From Amphiscolops sp. MND2022 (taxonomy: Eukaryota): a DNA stretch of 64,000 bases. The stretch spans positions 45,260,001 through 45,324,000 of the forward strand of contig OZ076418.1 in assembly GCA_964187785.1 (NCBI GenBank), written 5' to 3'. Of this stretch, positions 6,634 through 51,038 are shown piece by piece. The notes below the pieces were generated by a model. That model did not search any database, was not told the DNA's origin, and worked only from the letters and a program-made list of their open reading frames with translations. Numbering within the stretch: position 1 is the first letter of the stretch; each line of letters opens with the position of its first letter. The translations under genes and the position numbers were made by a program.

Positions 6634-6865
6634 TGTTGTATTCTCTAGATCTAGATTAAGATGGAAAAGAATAAAAGTTATATCTCTAGTTTCGACTGCT
6701 CTATATCAAATCAAATTGTACATATGTATCAAAATGTATCAAATGTAATTTAATGTAGAATGAGTTTGTTAGTAAACAACTCTAGTATCTAGACTAGATA
6801 GTTTGTAGACCGAATCTCGGTAGAGGTTAAATGGTAGTTTGAACCGGTTTGAACCGAATATAACA
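6634..6865 (-). repeat. 3' LTR of element 1 (232 bp)
   Basis: Differs from the 5' LTR by a 10-bp duplication (aaaatgtatc) and two substitutions. Confidence 0.97.
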
Positions 6866-6894
6866 TTTCTCCCCCTATTCTTTTCACATCTTCT

Positions 6895-7004
6895 TCAATT
6901 TCGGTTTGAGGGGCCTGGGGTTGTGGATTCTTCTGGGAGGAAATCCGCTGGCTTTTGTACTGTCTCGGGTTTCGGTATTCCTTTGTGTCTGGTCCACACG
7001 GTAC
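6895..7004 (-). CDS. Putative small 3' exon/sORF of element 1, (G)TVWTRHKGIPKPETVQKPADFLPEESTTPGPSNRN*
   Basis: Follows tttaatttatattacAG just after the pol stop; 23/35 aa identical to 50582-50691, with 6 synonymous codon changes and the stop at the same position. Confidence 0.65.
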
Positions 7005-7031
7005 CTGTAATATAAATTAAACATTTATTTT

Positions 7032-9587
7032 CTATCCCCAAAAGTTTCCGGTATATGTTATACTACCGTATCTATTCGGTATTTTGCTTTCTCGGTTGGT
7101 TCGTCTTATTTGTGTTTTTGGTTTCTCACCCGTTATTTCGCTGTCGGTATGTAACTGTAGTGTGTCTTCTTCTTCCGGATTCGTCCGTATTGGCACATAT
7201 CTCCCGTCTTTCTCGGATGTGTCGTACACTACTGGTGTTCCGATTTCTTCCGGCATTTCTTCGTCTTCGTCGTCATCGTCTTCTTCGGTATCGCTATCTG
7301 CCCGCTTTTTGTTCGGGACGATTTTCAGTTTGCCGTTCAGGATGTCCTTGAGAATTTCATCCCACCGGGTGTGCTTCCCGTCCAGTCCGCGTATGCAGTG
7401 TCGGTTTTTTGGGTTTATTTCGCCGGTTGTGTGCAAGGCCGGCTCTTTTCTGATTTTTCTCTCGGTCTGAAATAATGGGTTTGAAATAAATTTTCGGTTT
7501 ATTATTTTTCCGGTATCGGTTTTTATAGTACTTTCGGTTCCGCTTATGGCGGTTTGGATTTTATTTTGGAATTTTCCTTCTAATGATTTTTTGTTGTAGT
7601 TTTTTTCGACAAAATGAAAGGGATATCTAACCGAATTTTTCTTTTTCGGTGACTTTGGTCCGTCGGCGAGGTGTTTTTCCTCTGTCTTCGTTCTCGCCAT
7701 CACAATGTGATTTGTGATGTCTCCATCCGCATCACGGCCCACATAGATTGGGATTTTCGGTTTGTTTGATGCTGAAACAGATAGTTCTGACCAATCAGAC
7801 AGGTATGATTTTCCGTCTTTAACAAAATTTGTTAATTCGGTTCTCGGTTTTCTACCGTGATGTAGTTCGAATGGTGTTAATTTTAGTCCGGTATGTATTG
7901 TAAATCGCATTACATGTAATGCTCGATTTACACTTTCGGTTAGGCTTGTGTTGTCTTCCATATTTGCTATAATCAGATTCTTCAGTGTTTGTTTTGCTCT
8001 TTCTACTGTTCCGTTTCCCGTATGTATTCGGGGGGTACAGTATTCGATTTCGATATTTCGGTTTTTGCAAAATTCTCGGTTTTCTTTGGAAACAAATGCT
8101 CCTCCTTTATCGGATTTAGTTTTTTCGGGTATTCCGTATAAAGTAAAGTTACTCGATAAAAAGTTTATGACTTCTTTTGTTTCCGCTGACTTGCAGATTT
8201 TTACGGTTGGCCCTTTACTAAATATATCTATCGCAATTAGTATTTGTATATCTCCGTTTATCTTTTTATTGTGTAATTTTCCGGTAAAATCGATTTGTAT
8301 TTCTTGGCCGGGTTCGGTTAGTTTTTCTAATTTTCCGTAATGTTTTTTCGGTAATTGATAATTAAGGTTTTTACCTGATGCGAGGCAGGCGGTGCAGTCT
8401 TTCACTTTATTCTCGATGTCCTGCTTCATTCCGGGCCACCAGAATATTTTGGCTTCTGCGTTCATTTTTGTTATTCCGGAGTGACCGAAGTGGATGATAT
8501 CTAGGAGTTTTCGTCTAAGGTCGATTGGTACGACGATTTGGTCGTCTACGAAGACCAGTCCCCATCTTATTGACAGTTTGTGGAATACTGTCCGGTAGCC
8601 ATCCGGAATTGTTTCCCGGTCTTCCTTCCTCATGCTGTTTCTGACACGGGTTAGTTCCGGGTCGATGGCTGTTTTGGCGATGAGTGTCTTCAAGTCCATC
8701 ATGAACTCGAATTCCGCCTTCTTTATATTTTCTTCCGTGATTTTCTTGTTGCCGGTTAGTTTTCCCACGATATGGTTAATTTGGATGTATTTCGCTTCCT
8801 TTCCATCCGTGTTGTATTTGCTGAGGTCTACTATAGGTAGATTGTCGCCCCGCATTATGATACTGTCTTCTTCGGTCTCGGCGTTTTCAATTTCCAGTTC
8901 ACCTTCTTCCCGTAATTCTTCCGGTTCGTCTTGTTCTTCTCTCAATCGGTTCGCTCTTCTCATTAACTCCGCATCGATTTCAGCAATCTCCTCTCTACTC
9001 CTTTTGTTAGGTCTTGATGGGGCGAATACTGTCCGTTGTGTGTATTGGTCGTACCGGCGTCGTAATGTTCCTGGCCGGGATAGTTGATTTCTTTGTTCGA
9101 CTAGTCGGCACGTCTCTGGGCTGTTGTTCCGTCTGCGGATAATCTCCATAATTTCCCGTGTGGCGCCCCAGTGGTAAAAGTTTTCACGATCCATTTCGGT
9201 AATTTCCGTATTTAATTTTATGCTTTTTTGAGTTTGATTTAAACTTTTAGCTTCTTTCGTTGAATGACTTCTCTCTAGCGTGCTAATTTCGGACTGCCCG
9301 GATGTGGTTTTCTTATTTCGTTGGTGTTTGTTCACGTTGTTTTTGTTCTCGAATGTTCTATTCTTCTGTGATTGGTTCGCGCGATTCTCATTTTGTTCTT
9401 CGGATGTATTCTTCTTTGTCTCGGTTATTGCTTTCTCGCTTTTTGATTGGTCGGCGAATATTGGTCCGTATTTTATGTTCAGTTTTGCTTGTTCGGATAG
9501 TATGTTGATGACGTATTCGTCGTCGTAACTTTCCTCCGGTGTAGCTCCCCCTACCGGATTTCTACTAAGGTAATCGGTGAATTTCAA
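7032..9587 (-). CDS. pol: pol 3' part: long RH-IN linker, integrase and C-terminal extension (851 aa open frame)
   Basis: HFGHSG...CTAC zinc finger; IDFTG / SDKGGAF / GTVER DDE motifs; terminal RRTNR..PNRY motif. Confidence 0.93.
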   Translation of the reverse strand: MKFTDYLSRNPVGGATPEESYDDEYVINILSEQAKLNIKYGPIFADQSKSEKAITETKKNTSEEQNENRANQSQKNRTFENKNNVNKHQRNKKTTSGQSEISTLERSHSTKEAKSLNQTQKSIKLNTEITEMDRENFYHWGATREIMEIIRRRNNSPETCRLVEQRNQLSRPGTLRRRYDQYTQRTVFAPSRPNKRSREEIAEIDAELMRRANRLREEQDEPEELREEGELEIENAETEEDSIIMRGDNLPIVDLSKYNTDGKEAKYIQINHIVGKLTGNKKITEENIKKAEFEFMMDLKTLIAKTAIDPELTRVRNSMRKEDRETIPDGYRTVFHKLSIRWGLVFVDDQIVVPIDLRRKLLDIIHFGHSGITKMNAEAKIFWWPGMKQDIENKVKDCTACLASGKNLNYQLPKKHYGKLEKLTEPGQEIQIDFTGKLHNKKINGDIQILIAIDIFSKGPTVKICKSAETKEVINFLSSNFTLYGIPEKTKSDKGGAFVSKENREFCKNRNIEIEYCTPRIHTGNGTVERAKQTLKNLIIANMEDNTSLTESVNRALHVMRFTIHTGLKLTPFELHHGRKPRTELTNFVKDGKSYLSDWSELSVSASNKPKIPIYVGRDADGDITNHIVMARTKTEEKHLADGPKSPKKKNSVRYPFHFVEKNYNKKSLEGKFQNKIQTAISGTESTIKTDTGKIINRKFISNPLFQTERKIRKEPALHTTGEINPKNRHCIRGLDGKHTRWDEILKDILNGKLKIVPNKKRADSDTEEDDDDEDEEMPEEIGTPVVYDTSEKDGRYVPIRTNPEEEDTLQLHTDSEITGEKPKTQIRRTNRESKIPNRYGSITYTGNFWG

Positions 9588-10881
9588 GTTATTTCCTGCG
9601 ATATGTTGTATCGATATATCAAAATGAGTTAAGCGGTCTAACCATCATGTTAGTCGCGCACTATATTGTTTATTACTCCGGTTTCTTTTAATTAATGGTT
9701 CTAGTGCTTGATGGTCGGTATAAAGGTGTACCTTTTTTTCCGTACAAATAAAATCGGAATTTTTCAAGTCCCCACACTACTGCTAGTAGTTCTAGTTCAC
9801 CGATAGAATAATTCTTTTCGGTATCATTCAAATATCTGCTTCCGAATGCTATCGGTTTTGTGTTTCCGTCGTCTTGCTTTTGCCACAGTGTTATTCCCAG
9901 TCCGGTAGTGCTAGCGTCCGTTGTTACTATGTTCTCTTTATCTTTTGCGTAGTGTGCTAAGCATGGGCCTTCAGTTAACATTTGTTTTATTTTTTCGAAG
10001 TCTTTCTGTTGTTCTTCTGCCCATTTCCATGGTTCGTTCTTTTTCAATAGTTTCCGTAACCGGTCGGTTTGTTCCGAGAGTTTCGGTAGGAATTTCGCCA
10101 TGTATTGTATTGCTCCGAGAAATGATTTTAGTTCTTTTGTGTTTTCCGGTGGTTTCAATTTCAGTATTGCTTCTACTTTTTCTTCGTTTAGTTTGATTCC
10201 GTTCTCATCGATTTCGTGTCCCAACCATTTTATCCGGTTCATAAAGAATTCTGATTTCTTTTTACTTGCTCGGTAACCGGCTTTTTCCAGTTTTTATAGG
10301 ACGTCGAATAGTTTCTTCTCGTGGTCTTGTCTGCTTCCCCGTGTTACCACAATTATATCGTCCAGCCATGCCGGTGTGCAGTATTCAAGTGTTCGGTCAA
10401 TTTTTTCTTGGAATTTTGTGGGTATATCGGCAAGTCCGTAAAACCCTTTTTTGAACCGGTAATATCCGCTAAATTTTCCTCCGGTTAGTGCAAATACGCA
10501 GTGTCGGCTTGTTTCTTCTGATAGTCTCATTTGACCGTATGCGTAATCCAAGTCTATTTTGGAGATGAAAAGTTTTACTGTTCTGTCGCGTGTTATTTCC
10601 ACCGATATTTGGTTCAGTAATTCTTCCATATTTGGCATATGGGGTCTCATTTTAATGCAACTGTCGTTCAATTTCCTTGAATCTAGCGCTTTTTACTGTT
10701 ATTACCACCGGTGATACAAAACAATCTTCATCTACATCGTTTATTTTTTCTAAGTGTCCGGATTTTATTAGTTTTTCTAATTCCCGTCCGACATCGTCTT
10801 GAAGGTGTAGTGGTATCGGTCTTGCTTTTTGTTTAACCGGATAGTGCCCTGGTTTTAATTGAATGTTTATCTCGGTGTCTT
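9588..10881 (-). pseudogene. pol: Disrupted RT/RNase H of element 1
   Basis: ALDSRKLN, KIDLDYAYGQ, WLDDII, TTDAS, ELELLAVVWG motifs. Lesions: 1-bp loss ~10910, ~20-nt deletion ~10690, TAA at 10294-96, +1 in an A-run ~9735, TGA at 9645-47. Confidence 0.92.
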
Positions 10882-12216
10882 TTATCGTTTCGTTGTTCTC
10901 AAATAGGTCCGGAATTTATTGAATACTTTCTCGCGTTCTGATTGGTTGTTTTCGGCCAATTGAATTTTACTAATTGTTAGTTTGAATTTCTTCATCCAAT
11001 CCATCCCCAGTAATGGTGTTATATCTGTTCTTTCGGTTATCAGGATTTCCATTTTCTGTTTGTTGTTTTCGTGTTCGACGTTTACCGGAATTTTCCCCCG
11101 GAATTTTACTTCGTTTTTGTTTACATCTTGATACCGGCTTGTTATTTTCTGTATTTCGGTTGATTTCGTTATTCTTTCGTCCGGTGGCATTAATGATATT
11201 GGTGATCCGGTATCAATTATAAATTCTTTCGGTATTCCGTTGATCTTCAGTGTTGTGGTGAAGTGTTTGTTTGTTTCGTCTATTTTCTTTATTTCTTTTA
11301 TGTGGTGTATGCTGTCTTCGGATTCACTTGACGGTTCGTCCGATTCGTTTGGTTCGTTTTCGGTTAGTCTTTTCACCGTTCGGTTGTTGTTCATTTTCTG
11401 TCTGCATACTTTTGCGTAATGTCCTTTCTTGCCGCATTTGTTACAATTGGCGTCTAGTGCGGGACATTTATGTAATGGAGTCCAATTAGGTGCATTACAG
11501 AATCTGCATGTTCGGTTTCCGAAATTTCTGTTTTTCGGTCTTGCTCCGAATTTTTCCATTCTCTGGATTGGTTCTTCCTTTATTATTTGCTTCTCTTTTG
11601 TTGATATAAAGGCTTCCGGTATTGTGTTCTTTTTGTTTTTCTTCTCGTACGTATTTTGCTTGATCAGTTCAATTATCTTCTTCAGTTCTAATGTTTTTTC
11701 TTTCATTATTTTGTCCCGTAATTTTTTGTCGGTGATTGCTGTCATATATTTTGATATCAACAATTCTTCTGCTGAAATAGTGTTAAAGTTACATTCTTTT
11801 TCGATTTCGATTAGTCGTCTCCAGAAGTCTTCCGGTGTTTCCTCTTCTGTTTGTTTCGCCCAGAAGAAATCTCCACGATTATGGTATGTATTTCTTTTTG
11901 GCATGTAGAATTCGGTGAATAACCGGATTAAGTCTTTCACTTTTATGCTGTCGGGTTCCGTTTTATATTCGGCCCTGGTTATCTGGTATAGTGCTTCCGG
12001 TCCCACTCCCCACAAGAATTCTTCTTGGATTGCTTGTTCTTTTGTGGACCATCCGGAATCTGTCATGTTTTCTCCTTTCACTAGTGGTGTGATGTCCATC
12101 TTGTGTTTCCGTTTGCAAAACTGCCAGAATCTTTCTAGCCACTGTCTCGGTGTAAATACCGGTTTCCCGTCTGTGGCTTTTGCTTCGAGATTTGGGACTG
12201 TATTTTTCTCCGCCAT
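10882..12216 (-). CDS. gag: gag-protease of element 1
   Basis: Zinc knuckles CRFCNAPNWTPLHKC and CNKCGKKGHYAKVC; aspartic protease FIIDTGS in the same frame. Confidence 0.93.
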   Translation of the reverse strand: MAEKNTVPNLEAKATDGKPVFTPRQWLERFWQFCKRKHKMDITPLVKGENMTDSGWSTKEQAIQEEFLWGVGPEALYQITRAEYKTEPDSIKVKDLIRLFTEFYMPKRNTYHNRGDFFWAKQTEEETPEDFWRRLIEIEKECNFNTISAEELLISKYMTAITDKKLRDKIMKEKTLELKKIIELIKQNTYEKKNKKNTIPEAFISTKEKQIIKEEPIQRMEKFGARPKNRNFGNRTCRFCNAPNWTPLHKCPALDANCNKCGKKGHYAKVCRQKMNNNRTVKRLTENEPNESDEPSSESEDSIHHIKEIKKIDETNKHFTTTLKINGIPKEFIIDTGSPISLMPPDERITKSTEIQKITSRYQDVNKNEVKFRGKIPVNVEHENNKQKMEILITERTDITPLLGMDWMKKFKLTISKIQLAENNQSEREKVFNKFRTYLRTTKR

Positions 12217-12271: not shown

Positions 12272-12493
12272 TGTTGTATTCTCTAGATCTAGATTAAGAT
12301 TGAAAAGAATAAAAGTTATATCTCTAGTTTCGACTGCTCTATATCAAATCAAATTGTACATATGTATCAAATGTAATTTAATGTAGATTGAGTTTGTTAG
12401 TAAACAACTCTAGTATCTAGACTAGATAGTTTGTAGACCGAATCTCGGTAGAGGTTAAATGGTAGTTTGAACCGGTTTGAACCGAATATAACA
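12272..12493 (-). repeat. 5' LTR of element 1 (222 bp)
   Basis: Direct repeat of 6634-6865, adjacent to the PBS. Confidence 0.97.
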
Positions 12494-26304: not shown

Positions 26305-26486
26305 TGAAGAGAGAATAGTCTAGACAACAGTAATTAGGTACCTGCCAATGAACTTACATTGCCCTCTAGACTATATTCATTTTGATGCAAACTTTACGTT
26401 GAATACAGCTACACTTTGTATGTTACATTACTTACTCTTTCTTAACTTGAGCATCCTACTTCAAACCTTTTATCGAGTCTACAACA
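26305..26486 (+). repeat. 5' LTR of element 2
   Basis: No differences seen versus the 3' LTR. Confidence 0.97.
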
Positions 26487-26525
26487 TGGCGCAGTCATAG
26501 AAGTACGAACAAGAGAAGAAAACCG

Positions 26526-27497
26526 ATGGAAAATACGAGCAACAACAACGAAACCGACCCAACGGCGGTCAACCAAACAACAGTCGAAAGGACTGAAAGA
26601 AACAAGTACAAGATCCCGATCTTATCGGATAGAGAAACTGACCTATCAAAAGCCAATCCCAAAATGTGGTGGGAACAAATATCCGAATACATAGATTTGA
26701 CATACCAAAAGAAACTGGACGAGCTGATGGAACAAGGGACGGACTCCATGGACCCTCATACAACCTATCACATCAAAGGTGATGTTATATGGGCACTGGG
26801 CCCAAAAGCAAAGCACGAAATTATGAGAGGTCAATGGGGAAAGGAACTTAAAGATATTAGTCTCCAAGAGTTGTTGAAACTATTCAAAAATACCTTCCTA
26901 CCAACCAGGAATGTATTCCACAGCCGGGCCCAATTCTTTAATATCAAGCAAGAAGATGGCGAAACCCTAGACGAGTACTGGAAGAGGCTGGTAGACATTG
27001 AAAGAAAGTGCGAATTTAACACCATCACACCCGAAGACATCATTTCATACAAATTTGCAGCAACCATAAACGATAAAAAAGCCCGAGATAAATTCATCAA
27101 AGGCCCACTGAAATTATCACTGATATTGGAGACCATTGAGCTGGACAACTATAACCGTAAATATGGAGACAAACAAACAACCTCCAAGAGACAGCGGAAA
27201 AACCCATCCGAAAGCACATCAGACGAGGAACAGGTCGGATACACAAAACCCGCAACGAAGAAGAAGGCCACGTTCACGGCTAAAAAGAAAAACACGGAGC
27301 GGAATTGCCACTTCTGCGGAAAATCCAACTGGACACCCGACCACACTTGCCCAGCACGGAAGGCGAAATGTAACAACTGTAAAAAGTCCGGTCATTTTGC
27401 AAAGGTCTGCCGATCAAGAACCGTAAACCGGATACAAGAGGAAGATACCGGTAGGATATCAATAGGATATCAACACGGAATCATGGCCAGAAATTGA
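26526..27497 (+). CDS. gag: gag of element 2
   Basis: Knuckles CHFCGKSNWTPDHTC and CNNCKKSGHFAKVC; frame break with duplicated taggatatcaa near 27452-27473. Confidence 0.92.
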   Translation: MENTSNNNETDPTAVNQTTVERTERNKYKIPILSDRETDLSKANPKMWWEQISEYIDLTYQKKLDELMEQGTDSMDPHTTYHIKGDVIWALGPKAKHEIMRGQWGKELKDISLQELLKLFKNTFLPTRNVFHSRAQFFNIKQEDGETLDEYWKRLVDIERKCEFNTITPEDIISYKFAATINDKKARDKFIKGPLKLSLILETIELDNYNRKYGDKQTTSKRQRKNPSESTSDEEQVGYTKPATKKKATFTAKKKNTERNCHFCGKSNWTPDHTCPARKAKCNNCKKSGHFAKVCRSRTVNRIQEEDTGRISIGYQHGIMARN

Positions 27498-27552
27498 CCA
27501 CATTCAGTCCGTCAACGGCATAAATCGAGTAGACTTCTACAAAGCCATCCTA

Positions 27553-30018
27553 TTGGTGGACGGACAACCAATTGAATTCATAATTGACACCGGCTCTCCA
27601 GTAACGATTATCCCACCAATTATCACTCCAAAACAAATCAAAGCGACTTCAAAGTGTTTCGTGGACGTAAACAAAAACCCGATAGAATTCAAAGGCGAAG
27701 CAATAGTTGAGGTCAAAACAGAGAAAACAAAAGTGATGTTGCCAATCCTAATAACCAAGAAAAAGAATACACAACCCCTGCTGGGATTGGATTGGCTAGA
27801 TAAATTGGAAATCGGTTTGCAAGGAAGCCACGAAACAAACATCATCAGGAGCATAACCACAAACGAAAAAGGTGAGAAAATTTTTAAAGAATTCGAGAAC
27901 CTTTTTAAAAACAATCACACCATAAAAAACTTAACCATAGACATTCAATTGAAAAAAGACGCAAAACCGATACAACAAAAGGGGAGACCAGTACCAATAC
28001 ACCTTCAAAAAATCGTGAAAAAAGAATTAGAAAAACTAATCGAAAAAGGACATTTGGAAAAAGCTGATAAAACAACTGAAAACTGCTTTGTCTCACCAGC
28101 CGTTATAACAATCAAAAAAGACAAATCAGTAAAAATTGCACTAGACTCCCGGAAACTAAACGAATCTTGCATAAAAAGAAAAGCAACAATGCCAAATATG
28201 GAGGAACTAATCAGTCAAATTTCCGCAAAAATTACACAAAATAACGGCGAAATTGGCGAAATTTGGATGTCCAAGATTGATTTAGATTATGCATACGGAC
28301 AGGCCAAACTATCCGCAGAAGCATCAAGACATTGCGTGTTCTCCATCATTGGCGGCGATTTCACGGGACACTACCGGTTCAAGAAGGGATTCTACGGCCT
28401 ATCTGACATACCAACGGTATTTCAAGAACATATAGATAAGGTCCTAGAATTTAAAACGCCGGTATGGTTAGATGACATCATTTGCGTCACAAACGGAACG
28501 ATAGAAGAACACGATCGGGAACTACGCGAAGTTCTAATAAAATTGCAAGAAGCCGGTTACCGAGCGAGTGAAAGAAAAACAGAACTGTTCAAAAAAGAGC
28601 TGACCTGGTTAGGGTACTTGATAAACCAAGAAGGGGTAAAGCCAATTAAAGATAAAACCGAGGCTATAACAAAATTAAAAGCCCCCACAAACACAAAAGA
28701 GCTAAAATCATTTCTGGGCTCAATACAACATTTATCAAAATTTTTGAACAACTTGTCTAAAAAGACCGACAGAATGAGAAAACTACTCAAGAAAGACGTA
28801 AAATGGGAATGGACGAAAGAAATAAACGATGATTTTGAACAACTAAAAAAGGAAATAACCGAAACACCATGTCTAGCACACTTCGACCCAAAGAAAGATA
28901 ATTTCATAACCACCGACGCCTGTAATACCGGATTAGGGGCAACCCTATGGCAGAAAGAAAACGAAACATTCAGACCGGTGGCGTTTGCCAGCCGATTTCT
29001 CACCGAATGTGAACGAAAATATGCCATAAATGAACTAGAATTGCTAGGCGTCTTGTGGGGCCTCGAATATTTCAGATATTACGTTTACGGAAAAAAAGTA
29101 AACCTCTTGACCGACCACCAGGCACTACAACCACTGCTAAAACGAAACAGGGCACACAAACAATACAGCGCAAGATTAACACGGTGGTTAGACCGATTGA
29201 GCCATTTCGATGTCAACGTGCAATACACCGCTGGTAAAAACATTCCGTTAACAGATTACTTAAGCCGTCATCCGATCATACACGAACACGAAACGGAAAC
29301 GCCACACGAAGGCGATGAAAGCGAAGCCGAAGAGGAATTCGTAATCAATCAGATATACGGCCTATTCGAGTTCAATCGTACGAACGGCAGTATTACGCAA
29401 CACATGCGACGACCACCACCGGTAAAGAATTCCGACCAATCAGAACGCAGAACGCAAGTACGCAAACAAAACGACCGCGAACATTCAATCCAAACTTTCT
29501 CACCGCAAAAAGATATTGACTCACCAAACAATTCAAACTTTGATTCGCAAGCACCGAAAATGTCAAAGATGGATAAAGTAAACGGAATCGATTTACAGTT
29601 TATATTCAAAAAACGGGGACACTCCCCAGAAACTAGTCGTCTACGGACCGAACGATTTAAACTTCTTCAACCAAATCGAACCAGAATTGTGGGAAAAGGC
29701 AAGGACAACGAGCGGATATTGGAATATCGTCCTTCGCAACAAGATCGAAAAGAAATTGAGAAATTAAACATCTTGATTTACAATAGATTCTTTTACCATT
29801 GCGAGAAACTCGGGACCACCCCACTCAGGGAATTTAACGAAAACCTACACGAATCTTGGATAAACACCTCGTCAGACAATGAAAGCCAGATTAGCCACGT
29901 AAAAACCGAAAAGTGCTCAACAAACATCCTCAAAAAGTTCAAAAAACATGAGAGCATCAATCTTATCAGATTGAAACAAACAGCGAAGCGAAATGTCCTG
30001 CCAGAAGAACGAAACTAG
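27553..30018 (+). CDS. pol: pol of element 2: PR-RT-RNase H-linker, ending at a premature TAG
   Basis: FIIDTGS, WLDDII, TTDAC, ELELLGVLWG, TDYLSR; the frame resumes after TAG 30016-18. Confidence 0.93.
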   Translation: MVDGQPIEFIIDTGSPVTIIPPIITPKQIKATSKCFVDVNKNPIEFKGEAIVEVKTEKTKVMLPILITKKKNTQPLLGLDWLDKLEIGLQGSHETNIIRSITTNEKGEKIFKEFENLFKNNHTIKNLTIDIQLKKDAKPIQQKGRPVPIHLQKIVKKELEKLIEKGHLEKADKTTENCFVSPAVITIKKDKSVKIALDSRKLNESCIKRKATMPNMEELISQISAKITQNNGEIGEIWMSKIDLDYAYGQAKLSAEASRHCVFSIIGGDFTGHYRFKKGFYGLSDIPTVFQEHIDKVLEFKTPVWLDDIICVTNGTIEEHDRELREVLIKLQEAGYRASERKTELFKKELTWLGYLINQEGVKPIKDKTEAITKLKAPTNTKELKSFLGSIQHLSKFLNNLSKKTDRMRKLLKKDVKWEWTKEINDDFEQLKKEITETPCLAHFDPKKDNFITTDACNTGLGATLWQKENETFRPVAFASRFLTECERKYAINELELLGVLWGLEYFRYYVYGKKVNLLTDHQALQPLLKRNRAHKQYSARLTRWLDRLSHFDVNVQYTAGKNIPLTDYLSRHPIIHEHETETPHEGDESEAEEEFVINQIYGLFEFNRTNGSITQHMRRPPPVKNSDQSERRTQVRKQNDREHSIQTFSPQKDIDSPNNSNFDSQAPKMSKMDKVNGIDLQFIFKKRGHSPETSRLRTERFKLLQPNRTRIVGKGKDNERILEYRPSQQDRKEIEKLNILIYNRFFYHCEKLGTTPLREFNENLHESWINTSSDNESQISHVKTEKCSTNILKKFKKHESINLIRLKQTAKRNVLPEERN

Positions 30019-31844
30019 AAAACAGCCGAAACGATCAGAAGAGCCGAAAGAGACTTTTCCATGGATTTACCTCTACTAGTTGAGGAAACTGCGCAGGACG
30101 CTAAAATACTTGACGCAATCATCGCGCTAGAAGCTGGAAAAGGAGACGGTATCTTCTACCCATACCGACCACACCGTGAACATCTGGAGACCAGATTTGG
30201 ACTACTATTCTACAATGATAGAATCGTCATCCCAGAAGCAATGCGGTCAACCATAATTGCCATGCTACACAGCGGCCATGTCTCGATTAACAAAATGGAC
30301 AAATCAGCAGAAGCATTTTGGTGGCCGGGACTACACCGGGACATTAGAGAAAAGGCGGAAAACTGCCCCAGTTGCCGAGTAGCAGGTAAGAATCTAAAAA
30401 CACAATTACCGCAAACGGAAATAAATAGGCTCGAACTTTTAACCGAACCCGGCCAAGAAATTCAATTGGACTTCGCTGGTCCAATCAAATCAAAATCGCG
30501 GGGAGACATTTACATTTTAGTAGCCATCGACCGTTTTAGCAAATGGCCAACCGCACAAATTTGCAAAAATACGGACTCTCGGACCGTAATAAGTTTTTAA
30601 CAAAATACTGCACCGACAACGGAACACCGAAAACGATACGCACCGACAACGGTAGCTGTTTTAAAAGCAACGAGTTTAAAGATTACTGCAACGGTGAAAA
30701 CATTAAACGAATTAGATGTACCCCGAATTTACATACGGGAAACGGATTGGTCGAGAGAACAATACGCACAATTAAGTCATTAACAAGAGCCAATTTAGAA
30801 GACGGCCTAACTTTTGAAGAAAGCGTCGCAAGGGCAATTAAAACAATTAGACAAACACCACATAACACACTGAAAATGACTCCCTTTCAATTACACCACG
30901 GACGAAAACCGCGCACACCGATCACCAATCTGATTGGACAACCCACCTGCCTATTAGCGGACTGGAAGAAAACATTAACTAATTATTTTTTAGCACAACC
31001 GGCGGAGCTACAAGTTTTTACAGTCCACGATTCCGACGGGGAACTCGCAGATTATTTGGTCCTCAATGAATCAAGGAAGAGGGGTAGATCGGTAAGAGAC
31101 AATTTTGAAAGTTACCAATTTTTTGAAAAGGAAACCAAGCCCAATGCAATGAAATGCAGGTTCAAAACCAATAAAATTTTAACCGCAGCTAATGAGACTA
31201 AACATACGATAACCACAACCGATGGAAAGGTTATCCACAAAAAACTAGCATCTAACCCCTTTAAATTTCAGCCAGCAAAGAAAACAGAAGAGCCGAGGAA
31301 ACCCACCAACAGATGCACCAGATGCGGCCGATTCAGTCACGATGATCTATGTGACACTCACAAAAGAATCCGTTCCGAACAACAGGGACAATCAACGAGC
31401 GCAGATAAAACAATCCCCACAATGCCAATTGAAAGGTCTGAAGCACGACCGGATATCACGGTAATATCCGACAGCCAGTCATCACACGCGGATGAATTAC
31501 CGAGCACGGCAAACATTGATCCGGAACTAACCATCACGGCCGAAATCAAATACGACGATGCCGTGAAACCAACAGAAGAGACTCGAGATAACGAAACTCC
31601 CGCCATATCTCCACCAGTGGACTGCAGCACGGAGAAAACAAAGCGTATTGCTAAGGACTTCGACAACACCCCTACTGGATCGCCACAAAAAATACACATG
31701 TCCCCAAATAGAGGTGTAGTAGAACTTAATTTAGACGGGGGGGGAAATATAGAAAACAAGGTGGTAGAAAAAGGGATCCGCAGATCAGATAGAATAAAAT
31801 CTGCAAAAAGAGTAGTAAAAATGGGAGGAATAGAATATTTCTAA
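30019..31844 (+). pseudogene. pol: Integrase and C-terminal extension of element 2, 1-bp frameshift ~30590
   Basis: HSGH...CPSC, LDFAGP, RTDNGSCF, GLVER; the split ORFs 30061-30600 and 30543-31844 join with a 1-nt correction. Confidence 0.92.
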
Positions 31845-31990
31845 CAAAATCTGAATTTAGATCCAAAGTCAAAGAACATCGGAAAAGCCAACGTCTCCCG
31901 CCGCAGCCCAAAGAACACAACAAAGACGGGAACTAACAAGAAACCCGGCGAGAACTGAGATCGCTCTCACCAATCCCGAGGAGGGGGGAA

Positions 31991-32172
31991 TGAAGAGAGA
32001 ATAGTCTAGACAACAGTAATTAGGTACCTGCCAATGAACTTACATTGCCCTCTAGACTATATTCATTTTGATGCAAACTTTACGTTGAATACAGCTACAC
32101 TTTGTATGTTACATTACTTACTCTTTCTTAACTTGAGCATCCTACTTCAAACCTTTTATCGAGTCTACAACA
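31991..32172 (+). repeat. 3' LTR of element 2
   Basis: Preceded by the PPT and followed by the TSD. Confidence 0.97.
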
Positions 32173-36489: not shown

Positions 36490-39315
36490 CTAGAAAAAAA
36501 TTGAATAGAGGTGTTTGTTATCAACAATGTACAAATCAGTGAGATTTTTTGTATATTTACGCAATTGAACCTTACTGAAAGACTCAATATTTTCCGGGAG
36601 TAAGTTCATCCACTTCAACCAATTGAATGCTTTTCGCAGAGTGTTCCCAAGTGATTTCCTTTTTACTACAGTTCTGCAATAGGTTGAAGAAAAGAGTCCT
36701 TTTTGACTCCAGCGGGTTGTAGGTTTATTCTTTTCTGCTACTTTCTCAGGGAAAAACTTTTGTGGTGTCTCATTACGTAGTTGCTTAAACAACTCCTTGA
36801 CAAGCTCTTCCATGTAAAGTTCAAAAACTGTTAGGACTTTATTTTCCAATAACAAGTTTGAAATGGATTCAGATCGCTTTTTGAAAAAATAACTCGGATA
36901 ATTCTTCGCTGTGCGTTTTCAATTTTTTTTTCAAATTTGTTTTTGCTGCTGAGCCATACACTAAGATACCGTAGGAAATTATTGACCTGGCAAACGAATT
37001 ATAGAACATGAGAAGACATTTTCTCGGATACAAGTCTCTGACACGGTAAATTAACCACAAAATTTATTGAGTTTCTTCACAACGTAATTGATGTGTTCCC
37101 TGAATTTGAGACTTCCATCTAGATGTAGACCTAAGTATTTACATGAAGATTTGTAACATAGTTCTTCATTTAAAATAATTCTTTTTTCTGGCAATCCGCT
37201 GCCAAATGATATTGCTTCGCATTTATCTATATTAACTGTAAGTTTACTAGCTGTGAACCAATCAGTGATTCTATGTAGATCTTCGTTGAGTTTCCGGTCA
37301 GTATGTTTTCCAGATTTCACAATAGTTGTATCATCTGCAAACATCACTATTTGGCTGTCCTTCACAACTTTTTGTAGATCATTGATGTAAAGGAGGAAAA
37401 GGAAGAGGCCTAGTACACTGCCCTGGGGAACGCCAGTTTTAACACAGAGTTTTTTGGAATGATTTCCATTTTCACAAACAAATTGGTACCGGTCACTGAG
37501 ATACTCTCGGAGTATTTCTAAAACTGTTCCTCTGAAGCCATATTTCTCCAATTTGAACCTTAGAATTTCATGGTCAAGTGTATCAAACGCTTTCTGTAAG
37601 TCAATAAAGCAAGCTTGTCCTTTGTTTTTTGCCTCAATTTCATTTCTCATGAATTCTGTCACAGAGTTAATAGCGTCAATGCATGATCTTTTCTCTCTGA
37701 AACCATATTGAATATGTGTTAATATATTCTCTTTTTTGCAGAATTTGACCATACGTTTGTGCAAAAGTTTCTCGAAAATTTTTCCTAATGAACTCAAAAG
37801 ACTAATTGGTCGGTAATTGGATGGATCTGTTTTATCGCCTTTTTTGTGTAGAGGAATAACTTTTGCAGTTTTGAAACACTTCGGATATGTTTTTTCTTGG
37901 ATGCATTTATTAAAAGCAATTGCAATAAAATTTTCAACAATGGGAGAATAGCATTTGATTATTTCGTTGGTGATGCCATCTTCACCATAACTTTTTTTGC
38001 ACTTCATTTCGCGTATTATCTTAGTTACCTCTGAAGCATTTGTTTGATGAACAACCATTGTTTTTTCTAACCTGTCAATATCCGTTTTAATTTGGATTTC
38101 AGGTAATTTAGATGATAACTTCGAGCCAATATTTGCAAAATATTCATTTATCACATCAAGGTCAGGAAGATTTGAAACTTGTTGTTGCCGTTTCTTTATG
38201 CCTAATGTTTTGTAAATGGTTTTGGAATCCGGATTTTTACCTAGTTTTTTGAAATTATCAATTCTTTTAGCTTCGCGTATCATATGCGTGACTTTATTAC
38301 GATAGGATTTGTATTTCTTTCTATAGTCATCACACGGATTGTCAATCCACTTCTGATACAATTGGTTACGTTTAAGCAATGCATTTTTTATCGAATTTGT
38401 TATCCACTGATTATCACTATTATGCAGAATCGGTTGTTTCGGAGCCAACTTATCGATGCATTCCATTATTGCTTCAGACATTTGAACAATGAGGTCATCA
38501 ACGGGGGAGTCCAACGATATTCTCTTAAGCTTTTGATCGAGGAGAAAAAGAAATTTCAAAGCTCCATCCCCTTTAATTGTTTTCAGATTTCTCACGAATT
38601 GTTGTTCCCTGGTTTTTTCACGCCTTCCAGTCTTCGGAAATTTTGCTAGCACGCTGTAGTGGTCACTAATTGTTGTTTTGACTGTTTCTGTCAGAATGTC
38701 ATTCTGTGATATCATATGATCAATACAAGTTCTAGACTTAGGTGTGACTCGCGTTGGTTCAAAGTTTCTGAGCTGGAAATCATAAGCATTTAACAATGAT
38801 ACATAGTTTTCATGATCACAGTCGGTTTTTAGGGTATCAATATTGAAATCCCCAAAAATTATCGATTCATGAATGAAAGAGTTGATGAAATGCAAAACGT
38901 GTTCAAATTTCGGGAAAAATTGGGTCAATCTCATTGTCTCTGGTCTATAGACAACGCAAACTAGCTTCACATCGTCATCATTGAATTTTATTTCCAAAAT
39001 TTTGCATTCTATGTCTGTGTCAAACGCAATAGGGCTGAACTCGATACCGTTTTTCACATAAATAGCAACTCCGCCCGACCTCCGTTTGACGTTATGTCTA
39101 TGCTTTGATTCTATTGGCTGATAACCATCAATATTGTAATCATAGAGGTCATACTCTTCCGAAACCCATGTTTCAGCAAAAGCTAAAACTTGTGGTAGAC
39201 TCGGTAAACTTTTCAAAAAGATTTGTAGTTCATCTTTATGGTACCTTAAGCACTGGATATTTAGTCCTAAGATTAGATTGTTTGATAGCGTCATTGTTTG
39301 GTTCTCGTTAAACAA
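36490..39315 (-). pseudogene. LINE ORF2 (APE endonuclease plus RT); 754 aa intact, then two frameshifts (~37052, ~36925)
   Basis: LNIQCL, FAETW, GDFNID, CIDH (APE); NYRPISLL, QYGFR, DLQKAFD, GVPQGSVLG, FADD (RT). Confidence 0.93.
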
Positions 39316-39434
39316 AAAAATAATTGGGTTGTTTAGTGTATTTCAAGTTTCGACCAATGTAGTTGCAGTCAAACTTGTTTTATATAATTGTAGTTTACTT
39401 TTTGTTGCAACAGCACATTGAATAGTTTTTACAC

Positions 39435-40250
39435 TTAAGTAAGTTTGACCGCAAGGTTTGATTCATCTTCCAATTGTTCGGTGTCCATTCTAATCTGTTT
39501 CAACAGGGCAAGACTTTGAGCTTCATTGGGAGACTCTCTAATTCGCTTAAGAACTGATTTGAGGGCGTCATCGTTCTTGACTATTGGTGTGCTCGGTGTG
39601 TGAGGCTTTCTTTTTTTGGATGCACGCTTTACAGCAACGTTCTTTATGTCCTCTATAGCGCGAATACTTTTTACTGCTTTACTAGTAAACTTGCCATCAG
39701 TATTAGTGAACACTTTCACTTCACAATTTTGAGTGGTTGTTATCAAATCGTATTCTTCTGCTTTTTCTTTTATGAGTCTTTGATGAAGTGGAAGGCGCTC
39801 TCTCAAATAAATACTTCTTCCATTGAACGGATTAGGTTTGCCAGCGAGCCAAGATTTCCGGCCAAAGATTTCAGCTTTTTCACCAAAATACACAAATTTG
39901 ACGATGATTGGTGGCTGCTTTTTGCCTTTCTCGTATTTTCCCAGAAAATGACAGGCTTTGAAATTGGAAGGATTGGACTGATAATTCAAGTATTGTTTCA
40001 AAAAAGCACATACCTGTTCCTCCAGTGTAACCTTACCATGACCCAAAGGCATGTTGTCGATAATTAAACAATCTTTTGATGAATATTTCTCCATTTCCAA
40101 GACTCGTTCTTCCAGATTTTGCACTTGATTCTTCAGGGTGATCACCTCTTCATTCTTTTGCTCAAGTAAATTAACGAAAAGTTCCAGTAGTCCTCGACTT
40201 TGAGTTGATTCCACGTTTGTAATTTCATTTCGTAAAGTTTCAAGAGCCAT
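39435..40250 (-). CDS. LINE ORF1 (coiled coil plus L1-type RRM), intact 271 aa
   Basis: KDCLIIDNMP, ACHFLG, PPIIVKFV, IYLRERL. Confidence 0.85.
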   Translation of the reverse strand: MALETLRNEITNVESTQSRGLLELFVNLLEQKNEEVITLKNQVQNLEERVLEMEKYSSKDCLIIDNMPLGHGKVTLEEQVCAFLKQYLNYQSNPSNFKACHFLGKYEKGKKQPPIIVKFVYFGEKAEIFGRKSWLAGKPNPFNGRSIYLRERLPLHQRLIKEKAEEYDLITTTQNCEVKVFTNTDGKFTSKAVKSIRAIEDIKNVAVKRASKKRKPHTPSTPIVKNDDALKSVLKRIRESPNEAQSLALLKQIRMDTEQLEDESNLAVKLT

Positions 40251-43200
40251 TTCGATGATATCAAGCAGTCAAATAGAGCTGATGTTACGTAATCAATGCT
40301 AAGTGCAACAAAAGTTTTCAGTCAGAACCGACTGTTTGTCATCAATGTCTGAGATACAATAGTTCAATAATCTGTCTGAGGTTCACATTCCATATAATTC
40401 TAAGCCCTCCAACATCATTCGGAAGGAAAGAGGGTCACCCGTTGAACTTCCATAACATGAGGATCATGTTCTCCACACGTGAGGGCTCTACTCTCATCAG
40501 TATGAACGATAGAACGAGGTGTACCGCGAATCAATCCTGTACATTTGTTGCGAATCCTGGGGTACCGTTCCATTCGCGCTAGCAATCTACTTCATTCGGT
40601 ATTGGGACCCGTTTGAGACATTACAAGCCAAGGTCATTTGTTCTTTTTTTTACCGGCCCGGGGCCTGCGGGTCTGGTCTCGCCTGTCCTAAATGAACCAT
40701 CCTCAATTGTTGGATTGATTGTTGTAGTTTGCTACTTATGTTTGTTACTTAGGGCTGCTAGGTTGGTATCTTGGACAAGATTCATGATCGTAGAGTCGAC
40801 TGGAGATTTACTTAACATTCGAGGTGTGTTTACATAGGATCAGTCGGTCTAAATGTGCGCATGGGGTCCGAAGATGTTGCGCAAATGGCTCAATATGGTC
40901 TTTCGATTACGTATATAACGTAACTTTTTTTCGAGTGTACCGACACGAACTTAAAATCCTAAACTTAAAGCTGCATAACTTTTTGCTATGAAATTTGATT
41001 CCCCTGCTAATGTTGCAACTAGATTGTTCCTGTTCTTTTGGGCAGACTATTGATTGATCCTAGCCGAACAAAATTGTTTATAAAATATGGGGACACTGTG
41101 TAGCTTTTCGACAGTTTCAAGTTTCTGGCGAAAGTATTTTTTTGTGGAGCTATTTCGGTCATTTCGAACTCGAACGAATTGAAAGTGTTTTTGAAAGACA
41201 TATTCCATTTCAAAATTTGGTAGCCGAGAGTAAGGGTACCTTCAATGTTCAAACAAAGAAAGCAAACGGCTCAAGATAAAATAGCTACGGCTTATAGGTT
41301 GACTGCTATAGGCAAAAACAACAGACTTTCAATGATTTGTCAACAGAATTTTTGACGAGATTTTGATCACGGTGATTCGCGTGATTTTGGTCCTGAAAAC
41401 ACTCGTTCAAAACACTTGTGTTCAAAACAGAGTTCAAAACACTTGAAGCATCGACGTTTGAATATGATCATGCGCGTCAAACGTTGCATCGAACGCCGAG
41501 AAAATGTTGTACATTTCGAGGTGCAAACGGAACAATACATATTGGCAGGTGTTTGTCGAAGGCTAAGATCTCACCATATTTGTATAAATGACAACCATAA
41601 TCTCCATAAAACAAGATACTGGAAATCGCATTTGGCATTACTGGATTTTGTGGATCGTGTGCAGTACAAAAAACAGACTTGAATCAATCAAGTTGAACAG
41701 GTAATTCAGGTATCTGTTTTTCGTTCCTCATGATCAACATTACTCTCTTCTTGACACACCCTCATCAAGATTAAACCCGCGATATTTGCCAAGTATCAAT
41801 GTGGTACGGAAGGATACTTACAAGACTTTCACGAACTCTTGAAGTCTTAGCGTTCTTGAAACCGGTACCTCTTTTAGATAATTAATTACCTCTGGAGATG
41901 ATATATTTAGAGGTTCCATCAGCAGTGATACATAATAGCGTAGCAAGAAGATGACTTCCGTTAAAGTAGAATGAATTCACTATTTTATCCCAGCACACTT
42001 ACTTCCAAAATCTTAGTACATCGCTATGATACAACAACCAAGAAATCGTCAACGTCTCTGCAGTTATTGATGTTTTCCAATCTCTGGAAACAGAAGACTT
42101 TGCATTTCGTTTTTGGTGCTAAAGATTATCTGGATATCAAGTATCTTTTTTGGTTTGCAAACATTTGCAACAAAACTGCTATGAAAAAACTTGCAATATG
42201 CAATCTTCTTGAAAGATTGACGACATTTGCTTTCAACTGTGATTAACCCCTCCTTAAAAGACTCCAGTATGAACAGATCTGCTTCACTTCTTTGTTCATA
42301 TTTTTGTGAGAAAATGAGCCGAAACATAAAATCCAAAACTTCAAATGTAATCAAAACAAGTCAATCACGAAATGTTCAGTTGATGCGAGAAACTCTTTAG
42401 ACTAATTCCCATTCGAAGTGCAAAGTTGAATTGCGTTGTGCCGTCAAGCATTTCTAACTTCAAAACCAATGGCGCCGATTTTCTAGCTATGTCTAGACAA
42501 CCAATGAAACCAAAATATAAAACATTCCGCCCACTTTGATATTTCGACTTCTGCTGAAACTTTTCAAAAATATATAAATCGGGAAGAACTTGTTTAACAT
42601 GCTGAAACTTGTTCAACATGCTGAAACACAAACTTCACTTCAAAAAACAAAAAAATATATTAAAATAAAACTCTTTATGGCGTAAATTGGGTGGACTGAT
42701 AACTTCGAAAACATTTCATTTCAAGAAAGTCTAACTTTTTGCGTGTCAGGCCTTCACAGATACGACGGCTCTTGTTTTATTTAATACGAGCACTTGTGCA
42801 GTGAACGCGATTCTGATTTCTCTGACTCGAGTTGACATTACTGTGAGATAAGTAATCATAAAATCGCACATACACTATGGTATCAAAAAGCTAAAGACAG
42901 CTAATATCACACGAGAAAACTGTGAAAGCAGCCCATTTTTCTGAGGACATGCATTTGGGAAACAAGACGAAGGAGTAAACGTTTCTCTGACTTTGTGAAT
43001 TCTCTGATAGGCTCGTTGTGAATTTTAACTTAAGGTTTGGTGGTGGCGTTGGTGATTGAGGATTTGGTTCTGAAGCGTTGGTTTGGTCAAATTTAAGTTG
43101 GGAAGAAATGCTTGAAAGAGAGAGGTTGCCTAACGTAGGATTAGTCATGGTTTGAGTAACAGTAGTGTCAGGGTTAACATCAAATGTAGAAGCTGATGAA

Positions 43201-44866: not shown

Positions 44867-46137
44867 TTAGCTGTACGGGGCTGAAATCCATCCTCACCTC
44901 CTCGTGGTAGTCCCTGGGGAGGCAGTTCAGGCTCGGAAGCACCAGAGAGTTCATTCTCTCGGAGCATCCGTAGTCGTATTGAACTGCTGAGCTAACGAGG
45001 CCATGGTATGCAAGAAAGCAATGGCAAACTACTTGCATTATTCTGCCAAGAAAATCCATGAAAGTCACCAAAAAGACTCGGAAAAACAGCGTGAATGGAA
45101 ATAGAAGACATGAATCCTCTATGGCCTTGCTCGGTCAGACTTCTGTTTCATCCGAGGACAACTCTGACCGTCATCAAGCTACTCGGATCGAATTGGAGTC
45201 CGACAAGGCTGTGTAGCATCCCCAATCCTGTATAATACCTTCAGTGAAAAAATAACGAGGTCAATAGAAGAAATGAAAGGTGTCAGCATTGGCGGGATGA
45301 ACACTGACAATCTTCGATTTGCAGACGACACAGCAGTGATCGCGGATTCAGAGGACAAACTGCAGTTGTTAATGACAACCTTGAAGGATGCATGTGAAAA
45401 GCATGGAATGGAAATTAACACCAAGAAAAACAAAACCGAAATAATGGTAATCTCCAAAGAACCGAAAAAGTGCTCAAAACATTTGAATGAAGAAAAGAAT
45501 AATCAAACAGAAACCTTCACTTATCTTGGGACGCTCATAACAGAAGATGGAAAATGTACAAAAGAAATAAAATGTAGAATTGCCCAGTCAAAAAGTGCAT
45601 TCACCAATTTGAAAAAGATCCTGACAAACAAAAAACTTCCCTTCAAAACCAGATTTAGAGTTTTACGTTGCTACGTTTGGCCGGTACTTTTGTATGCGTG
45701 TGAAACCTGGACACTCAATCTTGAGTCGAAGAAACTCCTTGAAAGTGTTGAAAAGTGGTATCTCAGGAAAATGGAGCGCATATCATACACAGCACACAAA
45801 ACCAATGAATTTGTTTTAAGTAAAACCCAGAGAAGTTGGATGATACTTAGAGATATTGAAACGAGACAATTTAAATTCTTTGGACATGTGATCAGAAAAT
45901 GCGATTTGGAAGAAACAATTTTTTCCGGATACATCAACGGCAACAGATCCAGAGGAAGAAGTAGAAAGACATATCTTGATGATATCTCGGAAAAATTAAC
46001 AAGAAGTCGGGCCGAGTGCATAAGAATCGCAAAGAAGAGAGAAGAATGGAGACTTTTATGGAAAGCCTATGTCTGTGACCAGACACGGCACTAAAAGAAG
46101 AAGAAGAAGAAGAAGAAGAAGAAGAAGAAGAAGAAGA
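44867..46137 (+). mobile_element. RTE-clade LINE with intact ends and a large internal deletion
   Basis: 10-bp TSD ACTAATAGTT (44857-66, 46138-47); 5' UTR and MALLGQ..SDRHQATRI joined directly to RIGVRQGC; (AAG)14 tail. Confidence 0.9.
45273..46094 (+). CDS. RTE RT C-terminal portion (273 aa open frame)
   Basis: NLRFADDT, GMEINTKK, FTYLG, EIKCRI, LLYACETW, FFGHV, GNRSRGR. Confidence 0.88.
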   Translation: MKGVSIGGMNTDNLRFADDTAVIADSEDKLQLLMTTLKDACEKHGMEINTKKNKTEIMVISKEPKKCSKHLNEEKNNQTETFTYLGTLITEDGKCTKEIKCRIAQSKSAFTNLKKILTNKKLPFKTRFRVLRCYVWPVLLYACETWTLNLESKKLLESVEKWYLRKMERISYTAHKTNEFVLSKTQRSWMILRDIETRQFKFFGHVIRKCDLEETIFSGYINGNRSRGRSRKTYLDDISEKLTRSRAECIRIAKKREEWRLLWKAYVCDQTRH

Positions 46138-50479: not shown

Positions 50480-51038
50480 TAGACAGTTTGTAGGTTTGTA
50501 GACCGAATCTCGGTTGAGGTCATGGAAGTCGGAGTGAACCGAATATGACATTTCCCCCTATTCTTTTCTCGTGTAGTTTCTCTAGATTCCGCTCGGGGGG
50601 CCTGGTGATGTAATACCCTCCGGGAGGAAATCCGCTGGTTTTTGAATCACCTCCGGTTTGGGCGTTCCTTTGTGTCGGTTCCACATGGTACCTGTATTAT
50701 AGATAATGTTCATTAAACATTTTAATTTCACCCCCAGAATTTTCCCGTGTAGGGTATACTGCCGTATCTATTCGGACTTTTACTATCACGGTTGGATCGT
50801 CTTATTTGTGTTTTTAAATTCTCACCCGGTACCTCGCTGTCGGTGTGTAGCTGCAGCGTGTCTTCTTCCGGATTTGTCCGTATTGGCACATATCTCCCGT
50901 CTCTTTCGGATATGTCGTATACTGTTGGCGTTCCGGTTTCTTCCGGCAGTTCTTCATCGTCATCATCATCATCATCATCGGTGTCACTTTCTGCCCATTT
51001 TTTGTTTAGGACGATTTTTAGTTTACCGGTCAGGATGT
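50480..51038 (-). mobile_element. 3' fragment of a diverged relative of element 1 (pol tail, 3' region, PPT, partial LTR)
   Basis: Pol tail PNRYGSIPYTGKFWG* (stop 50728-30); PPT at 50551-62; LTR edge at 50550. Confidence 0.9.
50582..50691 (-). CDS. Putative small 3' exon/sORF, (G)TMWNRHKGTPKPEVIQKPADFLPEGITSPGPPSGI*
   Basis: Follows ataatacAG; same 110-nt length and frame as 6895-7004. Confidence 0.65.

Follow-up and report, generated by a model that had tools for sequence, protein, structure and literature searches.

The window analysed here, a stretch of 64,000 nt, carries on its minus strand a retroelement behind whose pol stop codon lies a short reading frame of its own, which raises the question of what this frame encodes and by which route it becomes part of a protein. 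The host is a Ty3/Gypsy LTR retrotransposon, with two TG..CA LTRs, a 5-bp target duplication (ACTAT), a primer-binding site, a polypurine tract and the Pfam domain order PR-RT-RNase H-integrase, and its top PDB profile match is Ty3 Gag-Pol. The parts of the element, and of a second, diverged copy in the window, are the following.

12272..12493, minus strand: 5′ LTR, with the primer-binding site (TGGCGCAG..) and a leader of 55 nt downstream of it
7032..12216, minus strand: gag-PR-RT-RNase H-linker-integrase, a single frame in the family but interrupted in the window copy
12282-10882, 10692-10294, 10293-9688 and 9644-7032, minus strand: open pieces of this copy, with three breaks
6895..7004, minus strand: terminal coding exon, phase 1, consisting of 2 nt that finish a codon, 35 codons with the motif KPADF and a stop (from selection and genomic joins to 7130)
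6866..6885, minus strand: polypurine tract, recognized by its sequence
6634..6865, minus strand: 3′ LTR (TG..CA)
50494..51038, minus strand: 5′-truncated fragment of about 545 nt from a diverged subfamily, with the intron 3 donor (D3) at 50825, an intron 3 of 134 nt and the terminal exon at 50691-50582

The indels between gag and PR are each private to one copy and related elements have single frames of 1750-1874 aa, from which it follows that the family is single-ORF. Some 230-250 residues (about 9510-8780, minus strand) separate RNase H from integrase and include a conserved block that begins MDREN..HWGAT; no match to this linker was found in Pfam or the Atlas, and the conserved sites that bound it appear to resemble protease cuts. 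The window also contains a LINE with an ORF upstream of its endonuclease and RT (37051-40268, minus strand) and, from a different non-LTR element, a fragment of the RT (45168-46094, plus strand).

The pol frame closes with TAG (7034-7032, minus strand), which is followed by an AT-rich spacer of 27 nt (7031-7005) ending in TTACAG and then by the 110-nt exon (7004-6895), which closes with TGA 9 nt ahead of the polypurine tract. The sequence thus agrees with the initial annotation, which had described AG|GTACC and 110 nt of reading frame about 27 nt past the pol stop, and a recount of the second copy returned the features claimed for it, namely the same AG|GTACC, length and stop position, 23/35 identical residues, six silent codon changes and an early closure of its phase-0 frame, at codon 15. 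The two exons are identical at 80/110 nt and differ additionally by a stop swap (TGA/TAG), and the spacer of the second copy is 36 nt. The exon is hydrophilic (best 19-residue hydropathy −0.83) and has neither a signal peptide nor a transmembrane segment; it had rightly been called not env-like, and its identity as an env ORF was rejected. It ends in (T/S)PG(P/T)S, which we take to be a possible degron. A 34-aa peptide starting at an ATG/GTG codon, previously offered as one form of the product, did not hold up: the codon is GTG in 38/48 copies and ATG in 10/48, and an equivalent is absent from seven diverged families; an independent small ORF was rejected on this lack of a conserved in-frame start codon.

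Selection on the exon was assessed in 60 loci from two DNA searches, the best-scoring of 1050 and 874 candidates. Of these, 56 were sorted into four subfamilies (A–D), with L038, L041, L055 and L056 omitted as truncated or degraded, and in 4/56 copies the exon is not 110 nt long. In pairwise comparisons between the four subfamilies, the dN/dS of the exon is 0.12-0.39 in the phase-1 frame versus 0.87-2.55 in the other two sense frames for the same pairs. Purifying selection is therefore confined to the phase-1 frame, as expected of the unannotated selected product that had been proposed from the window alone. Shared variation lies at 21/35 third positions versus 14/70 first and second positions (48 copies, four subfamilies), with a Fisher p = 7e-5 that is only indicative because the copies are related; silent sites are near saturation (pS up to 0.64), and all five codons of KPADF vary silently (13 copies). 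RNA structure, which had been considered as a source of the conservation, is not supported, RNAalifold on five copies giving −10.8 kcal/mol with a penalizing covariation term and 1/19 pairs compensated. Antisense coding was rejected, as the antisense frame that shares third positions is stopped in 4/4 B and 3/3 D copies. The Pol tail upstream of the D3 donor has a dN/dS of 0.07-0.22 and that downstream of it 0.17-0.35, which together with the exon values indicates that both alternative tails are selected.

Tandem arrays of internally deleted family copies occur at G000:C13:32.83-32.84 Mb (L007, L008 and L030; spacing about 5.4 kb), and like arrays occur at C5:38.99 Mb (L046 and L055; about 2.1 kb) and C3:53.90 Mb (the triply spliced L162; about 2.3 kb). 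At L063 (G000:C6:40734400-40740900), tandem 2.2-kb 5′-truncated non-LTR copies with RT and C-terminal C2H2 fingers sit in a GAC/GAT Asp run of the Gypsy Pol tail, a 58-nt target piece being repeated after each; this non-LTR element may target the GAC/GAT microsatellite.

The exon is joined to Pol by splicing and follows the last of three introns that all lie in the integrase region, a set that the initial annotation had overlooked.

7772..8374, minus strand: intron 1, 603 nt, in frame, phase 1, CAG|GTAAAA..TTTCAG; exactly lost in L118, L121, L162 and L163
7632..7771, minus strand: exon between introns 1 and 2, 140 nt
7467..7631, minus strand: intron 2, 165 nt, in frame, phase 0, CG|GTTAG..TTTCAG; exactly lost in L118, L120, L162 and L163 and, in other families, in L229 and L230
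7130..7466, minus strand: exon common to all forms, with a small conserved block, an acidic run and an HTDSE motif before D3
7005..7129, minus strand: intron 3, 125 nt, GT..AG, with acceptor A3; exactly lost in L118, L119, L120, L121, L122 and L163

Retained intron 3 encodes the basic 31-residue Pol tail and contains the pol stop and the 27-nt spacer. The initial annotation had suggested a phase-1 exon spliced onto Gag or Pol; the part concerning Pol stands, with a donor GG|GTGAGA at 7129 and exact joins, whereas the part concerning Gag does not, since a gag-to-exon GT-AG intron was found in no copy and no conserved splice sites were found in gag, PR, RT or RNase H. In a site scan of 20 longer copies, GG|GTGAGA at 7129 was the top donor (GT in 19/20) and 7004 the top acceptor. 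A pattern for the exon start preceded by a non-acceptor sequence had seven matches, five being exact 7130|7004 joins and two mutated acceptors, against 146 exon starts that fit the same pattern; spliced copies are thus rare (5/146 for this one pattern). The corresponding patterns for the acceptors of introns 1 and 2 had six and one matches, of which four and one were exact joins and two were unrelated DNA; they added L162 and L163, and every exact-join locus found in this way also lacks intron 3. L162 has, besides the loss of intron 3, 2 nt missing within the exon. A first junction pattern, which covered other donors in subfamily A only and could not match the 7129 join, had no matches.

In total, 15 intron-sized losses were found over seven loci, all at the three GT..AG pairs and one with a changed base at −1, in the combinations of intron 3 alone, introns 1 and 3, introns 2 and 3, and all three; the remaining 33 deletions of at least 40 nt include none that is GT-AG, as judged on the window copy, and none that recurs. 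In a tree built from 39 real copies, the closest neighbour of every one of the seven spliced loci is an unspliced copy, and the losses are therefore independent events. A two-motif pattern found nine copies without intron 3, four already known and five in other families, which brings the intron-3-less loci to twelve, seven of them placed on the tree. Among those of other families, L228 is 98.8% identical to its own family with exactly intron 3 missing, intron 3 is missing from L231, introns 2 and 3 from L229, and introns 2 and 3 and probably 1 from L230, and in L232, whose nearest reference is only 74% identical, the junction of the missing intron 3 was placed approximately. Two full LTRs and a target duplication are the mark of an element's own reverse transcription and integration. 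In L121, L163 and L228 both LTRs are present and the 5-bp duplication is perfect (in that of L119 and L122 one of the five bases is mismatched), and spliced RNA was therefore reverse transcribed and integrated; for the copies without a catalytic core, the known LTR life cycle suggests that integrase came in trans. L163 and L121 run from gag to the zinc finger without any intron-sized deletion, and in the triple-spliced L118 and L163 a single frame passes through all three joints into the KPADF tail. Two ENA proteins that contain the join (P0001 and P0002) are not independent evidence because they are 100% identical to ORFs of L163 and L118; a 50%-cluster search with P0002 found more KPADF-bearing fragments.

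The spliced genomic copies attest to the existence of spliced RNA in the germ line, and introns 1-3 have the marks of spliceosomal introns, namely conserved GT..AG ends, a T-rich acceptor context and exact removal via an RNA stage. We regard the terminal exon and its splicing as extremely likely. A further 5′ splice would go unseen in retrocopies because RNAs without the primer site are not retrocopied; over the polyprotein of ten families, no conserved acceptor was found upstream of that of intron 1 (A1).

These ten families, whose integrases are 43-93% pairwise identical, were used to gauge the depth of conservation; a protein search detected many more families in the same genome. Over the whole polyprotein the best conserved donors of the ten are D3, D1 and D2, and gag, PR, RT, RNase H and the linker contain no site conserved to a similar degree. 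The intron 2 acceptor (A2) is absent from this polyprotein-wide scan, yet TTT CAG is found there in 10/10 families. Among 12 invariant Gly columns, GGT, which makes up 22% of Gly codons, is used in 10/10 families only at two donors; CAG is used in 10/10 only at A2 among five invariant Gln columns, and GAG is fixed only at D3 among 26 invariant Glu columns in eight families. Judged by codon usage in the ten families, the splice sites are held against codon bias, rare codons being fixed only there. Intron 1 is 567 or 603 nt and intron 2 165-183 nt in length, multiples of three in 9/9 families. In seven families with integrases 68-78% identical to that of the window copy, a YAG follows the pol stop after 16-26 nt, and the phase-1 exon contains KPADF, a motif that is invariant in eight families. 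The distant families of L168 and L197 have all six splice signals and a 10-codon phase-1 exon without KPADF, which suggests that the removal of integrase parts is the older feature. In these families (L218 and L225) the Pol tail is not closed by a stop, the frame continuing via the polypurine tract into the LTR, and A3, lying within the ORF, opens the 10-codon exon, the stop of which is conserved. A distant sister element is present in the window itself.

26305..32172, plus strand: distant sister Gypsy element, with D1 at 30386, A1 at 30994, D2 at 31092, A2 at 31272 and a candidate A3 at 31861 (predicted only)

Its LTRs are identical and its splice signals sit at homologous places; among its copies, intron 1 measures 609 nt in 22/30 and intron 2 180 nt in 26/30. 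The candidate phase-1 exon from 31861 has 33 codons and is basic, without KPADF. Two strict patterns gave no matches to spliced copies of this element.

Intron 1 begins directly after the HHCC zinc finger and contains the whole catalytic core (Pfam rve, about 8315-8028), and intron 2 comprises 55 residues of the C-terminal region. PDB sequence searches with the integrase region gave matches over the zinc finger and the core only, the AlphaFold model of the region has a mean pLDDT of 40.9, and the intron 2 segment, which may be an SH3-like domain, had no usable match in the Atlas. Removal of intron 3 exchanges a basic tail with 7 K/R in 31 residues for a 35-residue exon with 5 K/R and 4 acidic residues. 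From the copies that lack only intron 3 (L228 and L231) it follows that RNA for an active, KPADF-tailed integrase is produced as well.

The reading that we prefer, with a probability of roughly one half, is that the three integrase introns serve to make a stripped product with the KPADF tail, which would act in trans as a noncutting helper or brake. The unspliced RNA would be the genome and the supplier of active integrase. The spliced RNA, very probably translated, would yield Gag-PR-RT-RNase H together with the stripped integrase, and, since translation would end within the last exon, a premature stop would be avoided. Protease may then free the last piece, of about 300 residues, comprising the zinc finger, the acidic region and the KPADF tail, in which KPADF may serve for docking or for degradation. 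The element has no frameshift, and Gag, PR and RT might in this way be raised over active integrase; the integrase-stripped, noncutting second protein would be likely to help to regulate the element's own spread. More tentatively, and leaning slightly towards doubt, this env-less Gypsy clade may practise multiple splicing in integrase in the style of complex retroviruses, with three ancient introns and a KPADF-bearing regulator of RNA export, particle make-up or copy number.

Two other explanations accept the splicing and differ in what it is for. The form lacking only intron 3 might be the one that matters, KPADF replacing the basic tail of an active integrase and altering its tethering or localization, with introns 1 and 2 as secondary switches. 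Intron 3 is missing at every spliced locus, even at those found with the intron 1 and 2 patterns, copies that lack this intron alone exist, both tails are under purifying selection, and in Ty1 short C-terminal integrase motifs guide targeting, as stated in the available part of a review (PMC12786077). We nevertheless consider this explanation unlikely: D1, A1, D2 and A2 are conserved as well as D3 and extend further, to the sister element and to L168 and L197, and the prevalence of intron 3 losses is biased because most of the junction searches were aimed at intron 3. Rather less probable still is a Rev- or CERV-like factor, in which the freely exported spliced RNA would give an integrase-derived product that helps to export or package the unspliced genomic RNA with its three retained introns. 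An element with three conserved introns must export unspliced RNA somehow, and the logic would be like that of CERV in Cer1 of Caenorhabditis elegans, also a single ORF with a multi-exon mRNA and one exon in its own frame, where CERV is needed for export of unspliced RNA according to the available text (PMC10309623). Splicing, however, discards the part most likely to mediate nuclear import or nucleic acid binding, namely the basic tail, and the product would remain fused to Gag-Pol until cleaved.

Explanations that dispense with splicing fare worse. The exon frame could be reached by a −1 frameshift before the pol stop, by stop-start reinitiation or from its own ATG/GTG, and in subfamilies A–D the spacer is indeed 27 or 36 nt with the exon frame open across it, and in subfamily C an ATGA spans the pol stop. 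In the seven diverged families, however, the spacers are 16, 17, 18, 19, 24, 25 and 26 nt, five of the seven not being multiples of three and one of the remaining two having an in-frame stop, while the peptide is always in phase 1 relative to the AG. Such spacers exclude frameshift or read-through as a general route; neither a slippery site nor a start codon is conserved, and exact spliced copies exist. The −1 frameshift and the own start codon were thus rejected as general routes, and we judge that a reading frame entered without splicing is very improbable. The chance that there is no splicing at all, and that recurrent microhomology deletions during reverse transcription or conservation of an RNA structure account for the data, is close to negligible. 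The sequence shared by the intron ends amounts to 4 nt in intron 1 and 3 nt in intron 3, by which template switching could mimic loss; yet intron 2, with a homology of 1 nt, is precisely missing from six loci that belong to several families, as many as three introns can be gone from one copy, and it is only at the splice sites that rare codons are fixed. The near-saturated silent sites of the exon and its single compensated pair in 19 likewise speak against an RNA structure.

To our knowledge, the known answers to protein balance and self-limitation in single-ORF LTR elements act at the gag/pol border or degrade Pol. The clade of the window element points to another answer, in which conserved introns hidden in the integrase coding sequence would yield forms of the protein that lack catalysis or have a different tail. 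Even without RNA data, hidden splicing can be revealed in other elements too, by rare codons that are fixed at splice sites taken together with intron-less copies, and an ORF without integrase in a genome of this kind may have been copied from spliced RNA rather than have arisen by decay.

No report of conserved introns inside a Gypsy integrase was found in the main texts of the open-licence literature. Errantiviruses make env from a spliced mRNA, and the intron of Ogre, a plant Ty3/Gypsy element, lies between PR and RT. Like errantivirus env, the exon of the window family has its acceptor right behind the pol stop and lies ahead of the polypurine tract; unlike env, it has 35 codons, is hydrophilic and is joined to the Pol tail rather than to a 5′ leader. 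Spliced env mRNA is ascribed to retroviruses in general in the available portion of the Cer1 paper (PMC10309623). Ogre, whose functional intron is cited in the accessible part of a review (PMC12786077), shares with the window family a functional intron within Ty3/Gypsy, but its intron is single, lies outside integrase and has no alternative tail, and for Arabidopsis Ty3/Gypsy elements the accessible sections of one study state that no conserved splicing was found (PMC5580714). The same sections describe Gag-only subgenomic RNAs of the single-ORF Ty1/Copia elements Drosophila copia, Arabidopsis EVD and barley BARE1, in which one intron at or after gag/PR ends translation early (PMC5580714). Conserved splicing changes the protein ratio in these elements and may do so in the window family, where, in contrast, three introns keep the frame, spare PR, RT and RNase H and add a selected C-terminus. 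Copia-type splicing gives an excess of Gag over RT, which the loss of integrase parts alone does not, and membership of the Gag-only class was rejected, no conserved splice site being found ahead of integrase in the ten families. Ty1 p22/p18, a truncated element protein from a subgenomic RNA that acts as a trans-dominant copy-number brake in the portion of the paper available (PMC4599808), has the kind of role that the stripped integrase might have, but it is Gag-derived and comes from an alternative transcript, not from integrase splicing. Closest in architecture is Cer1 cerv, which in the available text likewise combines a single-ORF genomic RNA containing splice signals with a multi-exon mRNA mostly in the polyprotein frame and one exon in its own frame, its acceptors being conserved over related elements (PMC10309623). 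CERV consists of gag pieces and a large post-pol ORF, whereas the window family keeps gag to RNase H whole, has all three introns in integrase and a last exon of 35 codons; and the role in RNA export that has been shown for CERV (PMC10309623) is a candidate role for the KPADF-tailed product.
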